A stretch of 26,015 nucleotides of DNA, from NCBI GenBank assembly GCA_003345545.1, contig PRDH01000071.1:1-26015 (forward strand), written 5' to 3'. The translations under genes were made by a program, and so were the position numbers. The notes beneath the pieces were generated by a model that was given only the letters and a program-made list of their open reading frames with translations, was not told where the DNA came from and ran no database searches. This document shows, in pieces, positions 3,173 to 8,383 of the stretch. The DNA comes from Candidatus Thorarchaeota archaeon. GTDB taxonomy: Archaea > Asgardarchaeota > Thorarchaeia > Thorarchaeales > Thorarchaeaceae. Each line of letters begins with the position of its first letter. Positions within the stretch are counted from its first letter, which is position 1.

Positions 3173-3907
3173 ATGACCTCTTCAAGTGATACGATGGCCG
3201 ATGAGGTCAGGATCCGAGCAAGTTCGTGTCTACGTGAATTGGGCTTCGGTGCTCATGAAACTGCAGTGATTTTGGCACTAATCGGTCAAGAATCAGCAAC
3301 TGTTGCTGATATTTACGCAGAAACCGGTATTTATCATGCAAATCTGTATGCCGTTCTTGACACCCTAATTGGGAGAGGGCTAGTTGTTCTTCAGCAAGGT
3401 AGACCGAAGGTGTACCAATTTGCGCCCCTCGCTCATATTGAGGAGATGTTTTCTTCCAAGTTAGAGCAGCTTCTTCGGGATTTGAAATTCCTACAAGAAT
3501 CCAGCAAATCAAGGATTACGACGCATGCCCTAATCTATACTATCAGAGGCAGCACAGACGTTCTTGCGAAAATAGTCGCCATGATTGGTAGAGCGGAGAA
3601 ATCGATATTCCTTGTTGCCCCGGACCTTGACTCTCTGGGTATGATGGTTCGTGAGAAGCTCCTAGAGGCGAAGGAGCGAAGAGTCAAGATTCGAGCCATA
3701 CTCGGAAGGAAACTGGATACCTCGGAACTAGGAATACCGTATCGTACAAGAACAGATACTCAAGCGGTTGATTTAGTGATAGATTCAATAGAAGCATTAA
3801 TCTCAATGCCTGATTTAACAGTGTGCGGCTGGGCCGATAATGCCTTGATCTCAACGCAACTTGAAGGGTTTCTCGAACAGAGTTGGAAGTCATCAGGGAA
3901 GGAATAG
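3173..3907 (+). CDS. TrmB-family transcriptional regulator
   Basis: N-terminal wHTH (LRELGFGAHE...ATVADIYAETGI...LYAVLDTLIGRGLV...GRPKVY), coiled linker, and a C-terminal PLD-like effector domain (MIGRAEKSIFL...LVIDSIEALI). Confidence 0.88.
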   Translation: MTSSSDTMADEVRIRASSCLRELGFGAHETAVILALIGQESATVADIYAETGIYHANLYAVLDTLIGRGLVVLQQGRPKVYQFAPLAHIEEMFSSKLEQLLRDLKFLQESSKSRITTHALIYTIRGSTDVLAKIVAMIGRAEKSIFLVAPDLDSLGMMVREKLLEAKERRVKIRAILGRKLDTSELGIPYRTRTDTQAVDLVIDSIEALISMPDLTVCGWADNALISTQLEGFLEQSWKSSGKE

Positions 3908-3909
3908 CT

Positions 3910-5280
3910 ATGTTTGACTATGACGTAATTGTAGCAGGCGCTGGTACTGGGGGTGCAACGACTGCATATACACTAGCCAAGAGAGGGCACACAGTTCTGC
4001 TAATTGACAGAAAAGAACGTGACAGTATTGGGAAGAAGACTTGCGGTGATGCTCTAGGGTCTCATCACATTCATGAACTCAGGGAACTAGTCGGTATACC
4101 TGAACTCCCCAAGGACATTGTGGAATACCAGGTGAACGGAATTGATCTCATTGCTCCAGATAGAAACCACAGAATGCGAATGGCAGGACCCACGACGACA
4201 GGTATGTCACTCAACAGGCTCAAGATGGGGCAATGGTTTGTTGGCCTTGCTGAGAGTGCAGGAGCTGAGGTCATGTCGTGTACTCGTGTCAATAAGCTGC
4301 TTTTCAAGGGCGGCAAGGTATCGGGTCTAAAGGCTACTAGAGAGGGAGAATCAGAGAAGGAATTCACCTCACACATTGTTGTCGATGCCACTGGAGCTTC
4401 AGGTCTGCTAAGAAGGCAGATGCCGGAATCGTCGCCAGTAGAAAGGGAAATCGCGAATGAAGACAGGATGGTCGCTTGGAGAGACATCTACGAAACTCCT
4501 GACTTCGACTTTGAAACCCCCGATATACTCGAGATATTCTGGAACCAGCAAGAAACACGAGGCGGGTACACATGGGTCTTCCCTCAGGGTAGAAATCGGG
4601 TCAACGTTGGAAATGGCGTTATGACCATAGATGGTCACCGCAATCCAAAGGACATTCAATACGATTTCGTCAAGAAGACATGGATAGATACGTGGGGAGA
4701 GATTAAGGTCCTTGACAGTAGTGGTGGAATCGCTCCAATTCGTAGACCGATTGATACGATGGTCGATGACAACTTCATGCTTGTCGGAGATGCAGCGTGC
4801 CAGGTGAATCCCGTTCATGGAGGTGGCATCGGATCTTCGATGCTTGGAGGAGCACACGCAGGGATTACAGCTTCAGAGGCCCTAGAGCGAAATGATACCT
4901 CAATTGGGTCACTTTGGCCATATAACCCTAGATATCACAAGAGCTATGGCTCGAAGCAAGCAGCCTTGGATATATTCAGGTGGTTCTTGCTTAATGTCAC
5001 AAATGAGGACATTGACTTTGCTTTCAAGAAGCAAATAATCAAGGCAAGCGACCTCCTTGACACATCAATGACTGGAGAAGTCAAGTTCGGTGCGGGTGAG
5101 AAGTTCAAGCGATTGGTCGCTGGTTTTGGTAAGGTGCCCCTCTTGCTTCGTGTATCTAAGGTTGCCAAATTGATGAGTGATATTCGGGCGCTCTACGCTC
5201 AATATCCTGATTCTCCAAAGGGCCTTTCAGCATGGAAAGAGAGGTTAGCACTCATCTATGATGCAGCCAAAGTCATTTAG
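3910..5280 (+). CDS. Digeranylgeranylglycerophospholipid (geranylgeranyl) reductase, Sulfolobus-type
   Basis: YDVIVAGAGTGG FAD motif, IGKKTCGDA, DATG, GGYTWVFP, VNVG, PIRRP, GDAACQVNPVHGGG and YGSKQAALDIFRWFL. Colinear with crenarchaeal GGR as I recall it. ATG 3910 is preferred over the track start at 3883. Confidence 0.88.
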   Translation: MFDYDVIVAGAGTGGATTAYTLAKRGHTVLLIDRKERDSIGKKTCGDALGSHHIHELRELVGIPELPKDIVEYQVNGIDLIAPDRNHRMRMAGPTTTGMSLNRLKMGQWFVGLAESAGAEVMSCTRVNKLLFKGGKVSGLKATREGESEKEFTSHIVVDATGASGLLRRQMPESSPVEREIANEDRMVAWRDIYETPDFDFETPDILEIFWNQQETRGGYTWVFPQGRNRVNVGNGVMTIDGHRNPKDIQYDFVKKTWIDTWGEIKVLDSSGGIAPIRRPIDTMVDDNFMLVGDAACQVNPVHGGGIGSSMLGGAHAGITASEALERNDTSIGSLWPYNPRYHKSYGSKQAALDIFRWFLLNVTNEDIDFAFKKQIIKASDLLDTSMTGEVKFGAGEKFKRLVAGFGKVPLLLRVSKVAKLMSDIRALYAQYPDSPKGLSAWKERLALIYDAAKVI

Positions 5281-5354
5281 GAGGTAGATGGCATACTCAT
5301 ATTGATTGGGCATGCATGGATTTCTCAACAGCTAGAAATGAGGAGGCTGATCTG

Positions 5355-6341
5355 ATGCGCATCGTTGCAGCCGCGCAGGGAATAGAGATTCGAGCTCCAG
5401 ATGATGCCTACTTCTCCTACTTCAACAGCCCATACATTGGGCATAGTCTCGGAACTGCTGTCGATATCTATCCTCGACACCAGGAATGGGGTGGTCCTGT
5501 TCCAGCTCCTGTTTCAGGTCGAGTAACAAGAATCAAGAAGCTACACATGGGAAGCATCAAACCATTTCCCACAGACGATTTCGATTATGGTATTGCGCTC
5601 GCACCAGAGAATGCAGAATCAGATATCGTGCGAGTAATGCATGCTGAACCTGCGGTTCGTGAAGGTAGCAAGGTCGACGAGGGTGATGAAATCGGGCGTA
5701 CGATTCGGTCTCGATACTTCAACTACTGGACAGGTCCGCACTATCACGTTGAGGCAATGCCGGCAAGCAACTTCACACGCTCGAGCAAATCAATACCTCT
5801 TGACGTCCGAATGGAGATTGAGCCTCATCAAATAGGCACTGCTCCATCAAACATAGAGATGACAATCACAGAGGTCACTGATGATCATGCCATTGGATAT
5901 CCTCAAGAAGACATTCACACAGAAATTGGTGATCTCAGTGGTCTTTCCGCGCAAGATGCAAGCGGCTCTGCAATGGGCATCATCGATGGGGGACTGTCGC
6001 ACTACCAGCATGGTGGTGTCTTCGGCAGATACAACACTGATGTCGGGGAAATTGTCTGCGTAGCGAACAACCAAGTAGGTACTGCTGCTTCGAGTAGAGG
6101 TCTAGTCACTTACTTCAGGAGAGGTCCTTCAATAAGGGCTTCGATTGATGGAATTGAGTTGCGTGGATTGTCCTGCTTCCTCTATCCGCCTCAGTACAAG
6201 AAGAGGGGCATGCCTCAACTCATCCTTATTCCAAAACGTTATGGGGGTTTCAGACACCTCCTTGAAGACGATAGTAGCGGCACACTAAGAATAGAACCTG
6301 GACGAGATCGAATAAGGCATGAAGATCGTCATGAGAGTTGA
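5355..6341 (+). CDS. M23/LAS-like Zn metallohydrolase-fold protein, no signal peptide, function unknown
   Basis: H-x6-D (GHSLGTAVDIYP), APVSGRV, MHAEPAVREGSKVDEGDEIG and TGPHYHVE (compare M23 STGPHLHFE). SD GAGGAGG precedes ATG 5355. Confidence 0.7.
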   Translation: MRIVAAAQGIEIRAPDDAYFSYFNSPYIGHSLGTAVDIYPRHQEWGGPVPAPVSGRVTRIKKLHMGSIKPFPTDDFDYGIALAPENAESDIVRVMHAEPAVREGSKVDEGDEIGRTIRSRYFNYWTGPHYHVEAMPASNFTRSSKSIPLDVRMEIEPHQIGTAPSNIEMTITEVTDDHAIGYPQEDIHTEIGDLSGLSAQDASGSAMGIIDGGLSHYQHGGVFGRYNTDVGEIVCVANNQVGTAASSRGLVTYFRRGPSIRASIDGIELRGLSCFLYPPQYKKRGMPQLILIPKRYGGFRHLLEDDSSGTLRIEPGRDRIRHEDRHES

Positions 6342-7324
6342 TACTAGTGGTTGAGAGAGTGCGTCTATCCATAGGAACAGCTATCGAGTTTGGATTAGAG
6401 ACAGGTACTTCAGACCCATATTTCACGACTGCCTTTCTGATGACCTATCGTGACAGCAAATGCGAATCGAACTGCGCGTTTTGCCCTCAAGCTAGGGACA
6501 GCTCTTCTGTATCGGATAGACTATCCAGAATATCTTGGCCGGACTATGATATCGATAAAGTCATAGGAGCCTGGCCTCAACGCAGTCAGTTCAGGCGTAT
6601 CTGTATTCAGACTCTCTGCTATGCATCTGTCGTGGAAGATGTAGTCGATATTGTGCGAAGACTTCGTGAGGTGGCTCAGCTCCCGATATCGGTGGCAATT
6701 CATCCCGTAGACAAAGACGACCTCAACAGAATGAGAGGGGCAGGAGTAACGAATATCGGGATTGCGCTTGATGCGAGTACCCCATCACTCTTCGAAGAAA
6801 TAAAGGGCAAAAGACGTGCCACTCCGTATCGATGGGATCGCCATGTTAATGCGCTACGAGAGGCACTAGAGGTCTTTGGCAGGGGAAAGGTCACAACACA
6901 TCTCATCATTGGTCTCGGGGAAACTGAAAAAGAGGCAGCGGATGTCATTCAGATGATGTACGGAATGGGGATTGGTGTTGGGCTCTTTGCATTCACTAGT
7001 GTCAGAGGTACTTCACTGGAGAGTTCCGAACCCCCATCTCTATCTTCGTACAGAAGGATTCAAGTCGTCAGGCATCTCACCTCCAAGGGAGTCCTTCGCT
7101 CCAAAGAGATCGGAACAGATGACAACGGAAGACTAACGATAGATATCGAACACAAATCGATGCTTAGCGCTTTGTCTTCCGGAGAAGCGTTTCAGGTGAC
7201 TGGATGCGAAGGATGCAACCGGCCATATTATAACGAGAGACCTCGAGGTCCAATGTACAACTATCCAAGACCCCTGAACAGGAAGGAGGTCCTTGCTGCA
7301 ATTAAGGAAACCCAGCTGGTGTGA
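6338..7324 (+). CDS. lipS2: Radical SAM protein, LipS2-type subunit of the archaeal two-component lipoyl synthase
   Basis: CESNCAFC (CX3CX2C), LSRISWP, RRICIQ, THLIIGLGETE, and C-terminal TGCEGCNRPYYNERP, a variant of the LipS2 TxGCPxC(N/D)RP motif. Adjacent to lplA/lplB. True start may be GTG 6347. Confidence 0.8.
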   Translation: MILVVERVRLSIGTAIEFGLETGTSDPYFTTAFLMTYRDSKCESNCAFCPQARDSSSVSDRLSRISWPDYDIDKVIGAWPQRSQFRRICIQTLCYASVVEDVVDIVRRLREVAQLPISVAIHPVDKDDLNRMRGAGVTNIGIALDASTPSLFEEIKGKRRATPYRWDRHVNALREALEVFGRGKVTTHLIIGLGETEKEAADVIQMMYGMGIGVGLFAFTSVRGTSLESSEPPSLSSYRRIQVVRHLTSKGVLRSKEIGTDDNGRLTIDIEHKSMLSALSSGEAFQVTGCEGCNRPYYNERPRGPMYNYPRPLNRKEVLAAIKETQLV

Positions 7325-7327
7325 GCG

Positions 7328-8095
7328 ATAGAAGAATTCCGATTCATCGACCTGAAAGCACATGCAGCCTTTGAGAATATGGCTATCGATGAAGCAGTCA
7401 TGCTCTCTATGAAAGATGGCAACGTAGGTCCGACGCTACGACTGTACCGATGGTTTCCTTCTGCAGTATCGATTGGTACTTTTCAGGGTATGATGGACGA
7501 GGTGGATACACAATTCTGTCATTCTCAGAACATTGATGTTATTCGGAGGATAACAGGCGGCGGAGCAGTCTATCACGATTACGCTGGAGAAATCACGTAT
7601 AGTATTATCATTCCCAGAGAACACAGATTGGGACCAGATGACATTATCAACTCTTATCGAATCCTGTGCAATGGTCTGATTTCTGCACTTGGTCACCTAG
7701 GTATCAAATCGGAATTCAAGCCAATCAATGATGTCATAGTAGGGGGAAAGAAAGTGTCAGGTAATGCTCAAACGAGGCGGCATTCCTGCATACTTCAACA
7801 TGGAACAATACTGCTAGACCTGGATGTCAACATGATGTTTCAGGCCTTGAAGGTTCCCAAGGAAAAGATCTCTGACAAGATGATAGCTGACGCAAGACAA
7901 CGCGTGACCTCGATTAGAGAAGTTCTTGGCAGAAACGTTTCAATGAATGAACTTAGAAACGCCTTGCGGAATGGCTTCTCGGAGGCGCTAGGAATAGAAC
8001 TGGTTCGAGGACATCTCACCAAAAACGAACGGGACACAGCTGGTCGTCTGGTTGCAGAGAAATACTCAACTCGAGAATGGAACTTCAAGAGGTAG
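7328..8095 (+). CDS. lplA: Lipoate-protein ligase A, catalytic subunit
   Basis: NMAIDEA, PTLRLYRW, RRITGGGAVYHD, PINDVIVGGKKVSGNAQ, QHGTILL and KYSTREW. The conserved N-terminus (EEFRFIDLKAHAAFEN) lies upstream of ATG 7379, implying an ATA start at 7328. Confidence 0.92.
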   Translation: MEEFRFIDLKAHAAFENMAIDEAVMLSMKDGNVGPTLRLYRWFPSAVSIGTFQGMMDEVDTQFCHSQNIDVIRRITGGGAVYHDYAGEITYSIIIPREHRLGPDDIINSYRILCNGLISALGHLGIKSEFKPINDVIVGGKKVSGNAQTRRHSCILQHGTILLDLDVNMMFQALKVPKEKISDKMIADARQRVTSIREVLGRNVSMNELRNALRNGFSEALGIELVRGHLTKNERDTAGRLVAEKYSTREWNFKR

Positions 8096-8101
8096 ACTTC
8101 C

Positions 8102-8383
8102 ATGAAGGTCGCTGACTACAAAGTCCAGGGAGGAAAGATGTTGAGAGTCAAGATGAGCCTAGAGGGCAGGATGATCAAGTCGATAACAATACTAGGCGAT
8201 TTCTTTCTCCACCCGGAATCAACCATTGAAGCAATAGAAGACAAGATAGTTGGCTGCAGCATAGACGTTCAGATTCTGTCCTCGAGAATCCAGAGCGTTC
8301 TTGATGAGCACAAAGCAGTTCTCATCGGTGCGACCAGCATTGATATTGCCAGAGCAATCGAAAAGGCTTCAATGAGTAATTAG
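8102..8383 (+). CDS. lplB: Lipoate-protein ligase accessory subunit (stand-alone LplA C-terminal domain)
   Basis: KVQGGKMLRV...IKSITILGDFFLHPE; 93 aa; 6 nt after lplA. Confidence 0.85.
   Translation: MKVADYKVQGGKMLRVKMSLEGRMIKSITILGDFFLHPESTIEAIEDKIVGCSIDVQILSSRIQSVLDEHKAVLIGATSIDIARAIEKASMSN

Follow-up and report, generated by a model that had tools for sequence, protein, structure and literature searches.

Protein lipoylation is essential for the 2-oxoacid dehydrogenases and for glycine cleavage, and the archaeal route to the cofactor through LipS1 and LipS2 was worked out in 2020-2023. Among the closest described systems are the Lpl(AB)-LipS1/LipS2 clusters of Thermococcus kodakarensis (Lpl-N/Lpl-C, TK2109/TK2248) and of bacteria, where they take the form sLpl(AB)-LipS1-LipT-LipS2 (PMC9585515, PMC10332631), and the accessory genes published for them are LipT, LipX and LipY (PMC10332631). 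Here, we analyzed a window of 26,015 nucleotides from a Candidatus Thorarchaeota archaeon (contig PRDH01000071.1; position 1 is its first letter), in which a module at 5355 to 8383 shares LipS2, LplA and LplB with these clusters and follows a GGR-family flavoprotein gene that takes the position of LipT in the bacterial ones. The described clusters contain LipS1, whereas the window cluster does not; they also lack an M23-like protein, whereas the first gene of the module encodes a protein of the Pfam family DUF8155 with an M23/LytM fold. DUF8155 is clearly a real accessory gene of lipoate assembly in archaea, and also in Synergistota, and its product probably assists protein lipoylation as a helper enzyme not described so far. 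M23 and peptidases go unmentioned in PMC10332631 and in a preprint of October 2026 about the specificity of the ligases, and the literature searched held no paper on DUF8155 by name and nothing relevant on a lipoate-linked archaeal M23 protein or on an archaeal lipoamidase together with LplA. An initial reading of the window from its letters (the sequence-only reading) had stated that no such component was described for this pathway, and the literature searched agrees.

Precomputed Pfam annotation places the window protein (328 amino acids; 5355-6341, + strand) and its relatives in PF26483 and PF26482 (DUF8155/DUF8155_C). The sequence-only reading had called the protein uncharacterised, which holds in that no describing paper was found but not in that the family is already catalogued. 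The family is small, with 218 clusters at 50% identity among 1.8 billion representatives, and in the ESM Atlas clusters matched at template-modelling (TM) scores of 0.86 and 0.75, DUF8155 is present in every member (100%). Nearly all members are 290 to 340 amino acids long and have both domains; no fused forms were seen among the longer proteins searched, which is weak evidence. As seen in an AlphaFold2 model built from an alignment of 40 relatives (predicted local distance difference test, pLDDT, 93.8; predicted TM-score, pTM, 0.92), the protein consists of an N-terminal M23/LytM-fold domain (approximately nucleotides 5355-5810) and an all-beta C-terminal domain (approximately 5835-6314). Residues 8 to 152, numbered from the methionine encoded at 5355, superpose on the M23/LytM protein EnpA (6smk_A) with a VIA Z score of 13.2 and a root-mean-square deviation of 2.4 Å over 116 residues, followed by LytM (Z 11.7) and lysostaphin (Z 11.1). 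Altogether, 29 of the 30 structural matches at Z of at least 8 have the M23/LytM fold or the related EIIA-Glc fold, and Foldseek gave a probability of 1.00 to lysostaphin and LytM.

The DUF8155 protein therefore shares its fold with the M23/LytM enzymes (lysostaphin, LytM, EnpA; PF01551, LAS metallohydrolases), and its sequence has the same set of residues in the same order, with two histidines and an aspartate as putative metal ligands, two putative catalytic histidines and the signature TGPHxHxE. The two motifs of the window protein are FSYFNSPYIGHSLGTAVDIY (H-x6-D) and TGPHYHVE, and the candidate zinc and catalytic residues are H30 (codon 5442-5444), D37 (5463-5465), H96 (5640-5642), H129 (5739-5741) and H131 (5745-5747). 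In a profile-to-PDB alignment, the LH and PHxHVE segments of the family fall on the M23 catalytic histidine and the HxH motif, so that H96, H129 and H131 have direct counterparts in M23, while the first motif, H30-x6-D37, has the x6 spacing of LAS type and not the HxxxD that, with the second histidine of HxH, provides the zinc ligands in M23. Across 53 relatives from more than 10 lineages, none of the five positions varies (53 of 53), and the 40-relative alignment shows the same in 40 of 40 sequences or nearly so; S25, P26, G55, G114 and R142 are likewise invariant in the 53. By its model, the first gene encodes an M23-fold protein with a complete and strictly conserved set of candidate metal-binding and catalytic residues, and from the sequence we infer that it would be an active Zn amidohydrolase. 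The residues of the LAS/M23 site seen in the sequence-only reading, and the fold for which it had suggested an AlphaFold and Foldseek check, were both recovered.

Despite these likenesses, several features separate the DUF8155 protein from the M23/LytM enzymes. The PF01551 match is weak (E 6e-4, 20.4 bits) and lies under the gathering threshold of 28.7, and the first motif has the altered spacing described above. M23 enzymes are normally secreted or act at the envelope, on peptidoglycan, whereas the DUF8155 protein appears to be cytoplasmic: it has no hydrophobic N-terminus and its neighbors are cytoplasmic cofactor enzymes. Since the maximum Kyte-Doolittle hydropathy over 19 residues is only 0.78, the hydropathy scan gave no membrane helix and no signal-like N-terminus, as the sequence-only reading had claimed. 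Instead of SH3b, LysM or coiled-coil modules, the protein has a family-specific beta C-terminal domain, and its genomic partners are cofactor-attachment genes rather than cell wall genes. We know of no peptidoglycan in the host archaeon. Given the subthreshold score, the altered motif spacing, the lack of an export signal and the lack of a peptidoglycan context, we would not file the DUF8155 protein as an ordinary M23 peptidase; we take it to be a new version of the M23 fold with a function of its own.

The additional C-terminal domain of about 170 amino acids, also part of the sequence-only reading, was modelled confidently on its own (pLDDT 93.1, all-beta). No convincing structural look-alike was found for it: the VIA matches, at Z up to 5.1, were a SETX barrel, the AlaX-M N-domain and FAD-binding barrels, and the top Foldseek match was picornain 3C, at an E value of 0.03. 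The domain has a conserved LDGGxPHY motif (D211 to Y217, nucleotides 5985-6005) and an RGLS motif (S273, nucleotides 6171-6173), with D211, H216 and S273 each kept in at least 50 of the 53 sequences. A second catalytic triad formed by D211, H216 and S273 was considered and set aside, the motif being missing in the ANME-2 and L020-type members (L020 being one of our locus handles).

A domain without an enzymatic look-alike is among the observations that would suit a DUF8155 protein with no hydrolytic activity at all, serving instead as a subunit that assembles, scaffolds or regulates the LplA-LplB ligase or the LipS1/LipS2 synthase, much as the LytM-domain proteins EnvC, NlpD and SpoIIQ work by contacting other proteins. 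The LytM domains of SpoIIQ, DipM and EnvC are themselves among the structural matches (Z 10-12), and the overlap or close spacing of the gene with lipS2 or lplB suggests expression at equal stoichiometry. However, the known noncatalytic LytM domains have lost metal ligands, whereas here none of the five positions changes in any of the 53 sequences, which span phyla. This speaks for chemistry having been kept, and we regard a purely structural role as improbable. A complex prediction for the DUF8155 protein with LplB, both supplied as alignments and run without controls, gave a score of 0.00, which speaks neither for nor against binding.

Next, we examined the gene context of DUF8155 across lineages, scoring a lipoylation gene as a neighbor when it lay within 3 kb of DUF8155. 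Such a neighbor was present in 46 of 80 named genome loci, and in 29 of 44 among those with at least 3 kb of flanking sequence on both sides; the chance expectation is 1 to 2%, a rough estimate from about five such genes per 2- to 3-Mb genome. In Thorarchaeota, the order GGR-DUF8155-LipS2-LplA-LplB is found in 10 of 11 genera. The synteny there covers the whole neighborhood, from arginase through TrmB and GGR to EamA, and taken alone it proves little. In one relative, genes for catalase, Fur and ferritin lie between GGR and DUF8155, and DUF8155-LipS2-LplA-LplB is unbroken.

Outside Thorarchaeota, gene orders differ, and for this reason the link between DUF8155 and lipoylation exceeds local synteny. 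In Jord- and Freyarchaeia, DUF8155 forms a pair with LplB through a 4-nucleotide overlap; in those genomes no other stand-alone LplB occurs, and LplA, likewise stand-alone, has its place beside LipS1 at another locus. The Bathyarchaeia show three arrangements, namely DUF8155-LipS2-LplA-LipS1, DUF8155 convergent with LplB-LplA, and LplB-LplA followed by one further gene and DUF8155. In Hadesarchaea and in two Synergistota (Acetomicrobium and a member of the Synergistaceae), DUF8155 stands beside LipS2-LipS1-LplA-LplB as assigned by NCBIfam equivalog scores, and in Atabeyarchaeum it lies 4 kb from LipS1-LipS2. An ANME-2 island holds LplB, radical-SAM genes, DUF8155 and two GcvH genes, with LplA and a dihydrolipoamide-dehydrogenase-like gene on the opposite strand, and on a haloarchaeon-like contig DUF8155 is divergent from an LplA/LipL-type gene. 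Co-localization with lipoate genes, proposed from the window, therefore extends far beyond Thorarchaeota.

Some details of these loci were also recorded. In the ANME-2 island (metagenome-assembled genome, MAG, GCA_014237115.1; L024, 1404-10621), the two LipS-type radical-SAM genes are split by a PemK-toxin insertion, and a third, weak radical-SAM gene is present. The LplA-B_cat protein of the haloarchaeon-like contig (L018, 5262-5948) has as its top NCBIfam match, a weak one, a LipL-type octanoyl-[GcvH]:protein N-octanoyltransferase. The DUF8155-LplB pairs of Jord- and Freyarchaeia (L012, 9525-10838; L026, 7243-10829) lie beside CoaBC, a GHMP-type (pantoate) kinase and phosphopantothenate synthetase, and elsewhere a riboflavin kinase/FAD synthetase (L014) or an NAD synthase (L016) is a neighbor, giving a loose cofactor neighborhood. 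One relative (G003) has two GGR-DUF8155-LipS2-LplA-LplB regions (C166:17950-18951, L006; and C61, L017), and one of its DUF8155 copies contains four in-frame stops, as in a decaying duplicate or a mixed bin.

The same context bears on whether the position of DUF8155 could be mere inherited synteny, the protein being a peptidase unrelated to lipoylation that acts in cytoplasmic peptide turnover or at the cell envelope. The strong whole-neighborhood synteny of Thorarchaeota would allow this, as would the roughly 40% of loci without a nearby lipoate gene. Against it, the link is seen again, with the genes ordered and oriented differently, in about ten deep lineages, bacteria among them, and survives insertions; the family is nested in LipS2-positive genomes, as described next, and the protein has no signal peptide. 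Such a coincidence is thus very unlikely. The unlinked loci had no theme of their own in common; histidine kinases, Tpt1, nitroreductase, PurP and NAD synthase were among their neighbors.

To describe the phyletic pattern, 301 Asgard genomes drawn evenly from the window's phylum were searched, and the resulting lists were compared by hand. The DUF8155 profile matched 99 of the 301 genomes (30 of 70 genera) and LipS2 was found in 204. LipS2 was present in 95 of the 99 DUF8155-positive genomes versus 109 of the 202 negative ones. At the family level, all 10 families with DUF8155 also have LipS2, and no DUF8155 was detected in the 11 LipS2-negative families (78 genomes); the hypergeometric p value is about 0.003, with families that are not fully independent. 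LplA-type catalytic domains, found in 20 of 22 genomes, are almost universal and therefore uninformative. The co-occurrence expected from the sequence-only reading was thus found in one direction only: DUF8155-positive genomes are nearly always LipS2-positive, and about half of the LipS2-positive families sampled do without DUF8155. From these two observations together, DUF8155 is nested within the LipS-type pathway as an accessory gene that is not required.

A maximum-likelihood tree of 53 DUF8155 proteins mostly follows taxonomy, with Thorarchaeota, Jord-/Freyarchaeia and several clades of Bathyarchaeia. This argues for an old family whose ties to lipoate genes were retained or formed anew many times. 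The two Synergistota proteins fall into an unresolved polytomy with Hadesarchaea and others. The gene order in Acetomicrobium sp. (L081, 8007-11776) and in the Synergistaceae member (L088, 8001-11834) is identical to that of a Hadesarchaea MAG (L085), and this identical order, on which the proposal rests solely, suggests that the five genes were transferred jointly from archaea to Synergistota. The lipoate link claimed in the sequence-only reading stands, and a purely archaeal component does not, since Synergistota carry DUF8155 by the same cluster.

Taken together, our best explanation is that the DUF8155 protein is a cytoplasmic M23-fold accessory to Lpl(AB)-LipS1/LipS2 that hydrolyzes an amide of the cofactor branch, to which we assign a probability of roughly 0.55. 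That the family functions in lipoylation in some way is, considered separately, highly probable. In the mechanism that we propose, a Zn-activated water would hydrolyze an amide bond of the cofactor branch, most likely the N6-octanoyl- or N6-lipoyl-lysine amide. Some M23 enzymes act on peptidoglycan cross-links by cutting amides formed with the side-chain amino group of a diamino acid, which makes an N6-acyl-lysine amide a chemically natural target. In a salvage mode, the enzyme might cleave free acyl-lysine or peptides, like biotinidase, and in an editing mode it might remove groups from wrongly or incompletely modified carrier domains; the octanoate or lipoate set free could then be re-ligated by LplA/LplB, and the C-terminal domain may serve in the recognition of the substrate or of a partner. 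An enzyme that makes or recovers the free acid used by the ligase, or that edits its carriers, would fit the ligase subunits being the closest recurrent partners. The fold, the residues of the site and the association with lipoate genes put forward in the sequence-only reading are observed, while the roles that it offered, as lipoamidase, in proofreading or in precursor supply, keep the standing of proposals.

The reaction itself has precedents. Lipoamidases and biotinidase are represented by Lpa of Enterococcus faecalis, an amidase-signature enzyme, by the sirtuin-type delipoylases and by vertebrate biotinidase, and they carry out the reaction proposed here, N6-acyl-lysine amide hydrolysis with recycling of the cofactor. 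Their folds are unrelated, being a Ser-Ser-Lys amidase, an NAD-dependent sirtuin and a nitrilase-type Cys enzyme, in contrast to the putatively Zn-dependent M23 fold of DUF8155. No kinship in sequence between DUF8155 and the known lipoamidases was seen, though no search aimed at one was made. An acyl-lysine amide is a tentative choice of substrate. The most specific form of the proposal, in which DUF8155, as an N6-acyl-lysine amidohydrolase with a Zn-dependent M23 fold, would edit or recycle octanoyl and lipoyl groups and would have spread with the pathway from archaea to Synergistota, is conceivable and should be held just as loosely.

Several points weigh against the explanation that we prefer. 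The substrate assignment is a guess, and it is not obvious why lipoyl groups should be removed by a cell that makes them. The first metal motif is H-x6-D in place of the M23 HxxxD, and the PF01551 score is 20.4 against 28.7 bits. No lipoate genes are adjacent in the families f9 and f16, in Sifarchaeum and in part of the Bathyarchaeia, and about half of the sampled LipS2-positive Asgard families lack DUF8155 (for example f12, 0/19; f27, 0/11; f24, 0/7). Moreover, related genomes are not independent, so that the co-occurrence counts overstate the support.

The tightness of the ligase partnership would also suit a supply of acyl precursor. In that case, the DUF8155 hydrolase would free octanoate from an octanoyl or lipoyl conjugate other than a protein acyl-lysine, such as an amide or ester in which the acyl group is stored, transported or degraded, and would provide the octanoate for LplA/LplB in organisms without fatty-acid synthesis based on acyl carrier protein. 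The ligase subunits are the tightest recurrent neighbors (as DUF8155-LplB pairs or in convergence with LplB-LplA), the family falls within the LipS2 genomes and hence within an octanoate-dependent route, a small anionic molecule could be bound by the conserved R118 and R142, and the origin of archaeal octanoate is called open in PMC10332631. However, we know of no conjugate that would qualify, the bonds hydrolyzed by M23 enzymes are those of peptides or isopeptides, and many LipS2-positive genomes lack DUF8155, which therefore cannot be a general source of octanoate. We consider precursor supply unlikely, and we keep to hydrolysis of a cofactor-branch amide as the working explanation.

In the window, six closely spaced genes on the + strand span 3173-8383, and four of them, DUF8155, LipS2, LplA and LplB, are packed into 5355-8383. 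The corresponding open reading frames, at 5316/5355-6341, 6338-7324, 7379-8095 (frame open from 7328) and 8102-8383, all lie on the + strand, in agreement with the four co-oriented genes of the sequence-only reading, whose identification of LipS2, LplA and LplB also held. The LipS2-type radical-SAM lipoyl synthase subunit (6338-7324) scores 343.7 bits on NF053743 against a cutoff of 270 and matches PF04055. LplA/Lpl-N, the large, catalytic subunit of the lipoate-protein ligase (7328-8095), matches PF21948 (E 6e-55, 186.7 bits) and NF053750 (218.6 bits), and LplB/Lpl-C, the small subunit (8102-8383), matches PF10437 with 29.6 bits against a cutoff of 24 and NF053749 with 61.2 bits, slightly under the cutoff of 65. 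For the DUF8155 gene, a GGAGG motif 8 nucleotides 5' of the ATG at 5355 and the length of relatives, about 322 amino acids, make 5355 the likely start codon. Spacings of about -4, +3 and +6 nucleotides had been given for the module. The first holds, the TTG start of lipS2 sharing 4 nucleotides (TTGA) with the DUF8155 stop (an alternative in-frame GTG lies at 6347), as does the last, between LplA and LplB, and the +3 gap between LipS2 and LplA requires a noncanonical ATA start at 7328. No canonical start gives the full-length N-terminus of lplA; from the first ATG, at 7379, the product has 238 amino acids versus about 255 in relatives, which suggests a noncanonical start or a slightly truncated product. 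The DUF8155 gene is probably cotranscribed with lipS2-lplA-lplB, with translational coupling.

Upstream of these four genes lie a TrmB-family transcription regulator (3173-3907, + strand; PF01978, E 4e-11) and the GGR-family flavoprotein (3883-5280, + strand; TIGR02032, 198.6 bits against a cutoff of 158.8). The TrmB gene overlaps the start of the GGR-like gene, its slot is filled likewise in two relatives (L001 and L023), and it may be the head of the operon. The GGR-like protein scores 438 bits on NF041080, the DGGGPL-reductase equivalog, under the cutoff of 580, and the source genome holds about 10 GGR paralogues. LipT is the flavoprotein of the bacterial LipS1/S2 clusters (PMC10332631), and the GGR-like flavoprotein might donate electrons in the manner of LipT instead of reducing lipids. 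A true partnership of GGR with DUF8155 was rejected because the two genes border each other in Thorarchaeota only; the concern that homologues might track with GGR instead of lipoate genes was thus not borne out.

The rest of the pathway was also searched for in the source genome, which is 92.9% complete. Neither LipS1, for which the best match in the whole genome was 20 bits, nor LipA was found. The LipS1/LipS2-Lpl route read from the window is therefore represented by LipS2, LplA and LplB, with LipS1 missing. Since 7 of 8 relatives in the genus carry a LipS1-like gene on other contigs (about 211 bits against a cutoff of 230), the absence is probably an assembly gap. In these relatives, the LipS1-like gene sometimes lies close to a contig end.

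Overall, DUF8155 is a conserved, catalytically intact hydrolase-type lead across Asgard archaea, Bathyarchaeia, Hadesarchaea, ANME-2 and Synergistota, and it may bear on three points of the lipoate pathway, namely where octanoate comes from, how the ligases select their substrates and how the cofactor turns over. If the acyl-lysine amidohydrolase proposal is true, the DUF8155 protein would fill in a step that archaeal lipoate metabolism has so far lacked, an M23 enzyme would for the first time have a function in the cytoplasm and away from peptidoglycan, and the fold of the M23 peptidoglycan hydrolases would have been reused in the cytoplasm of organisms without known peptidoglycan.

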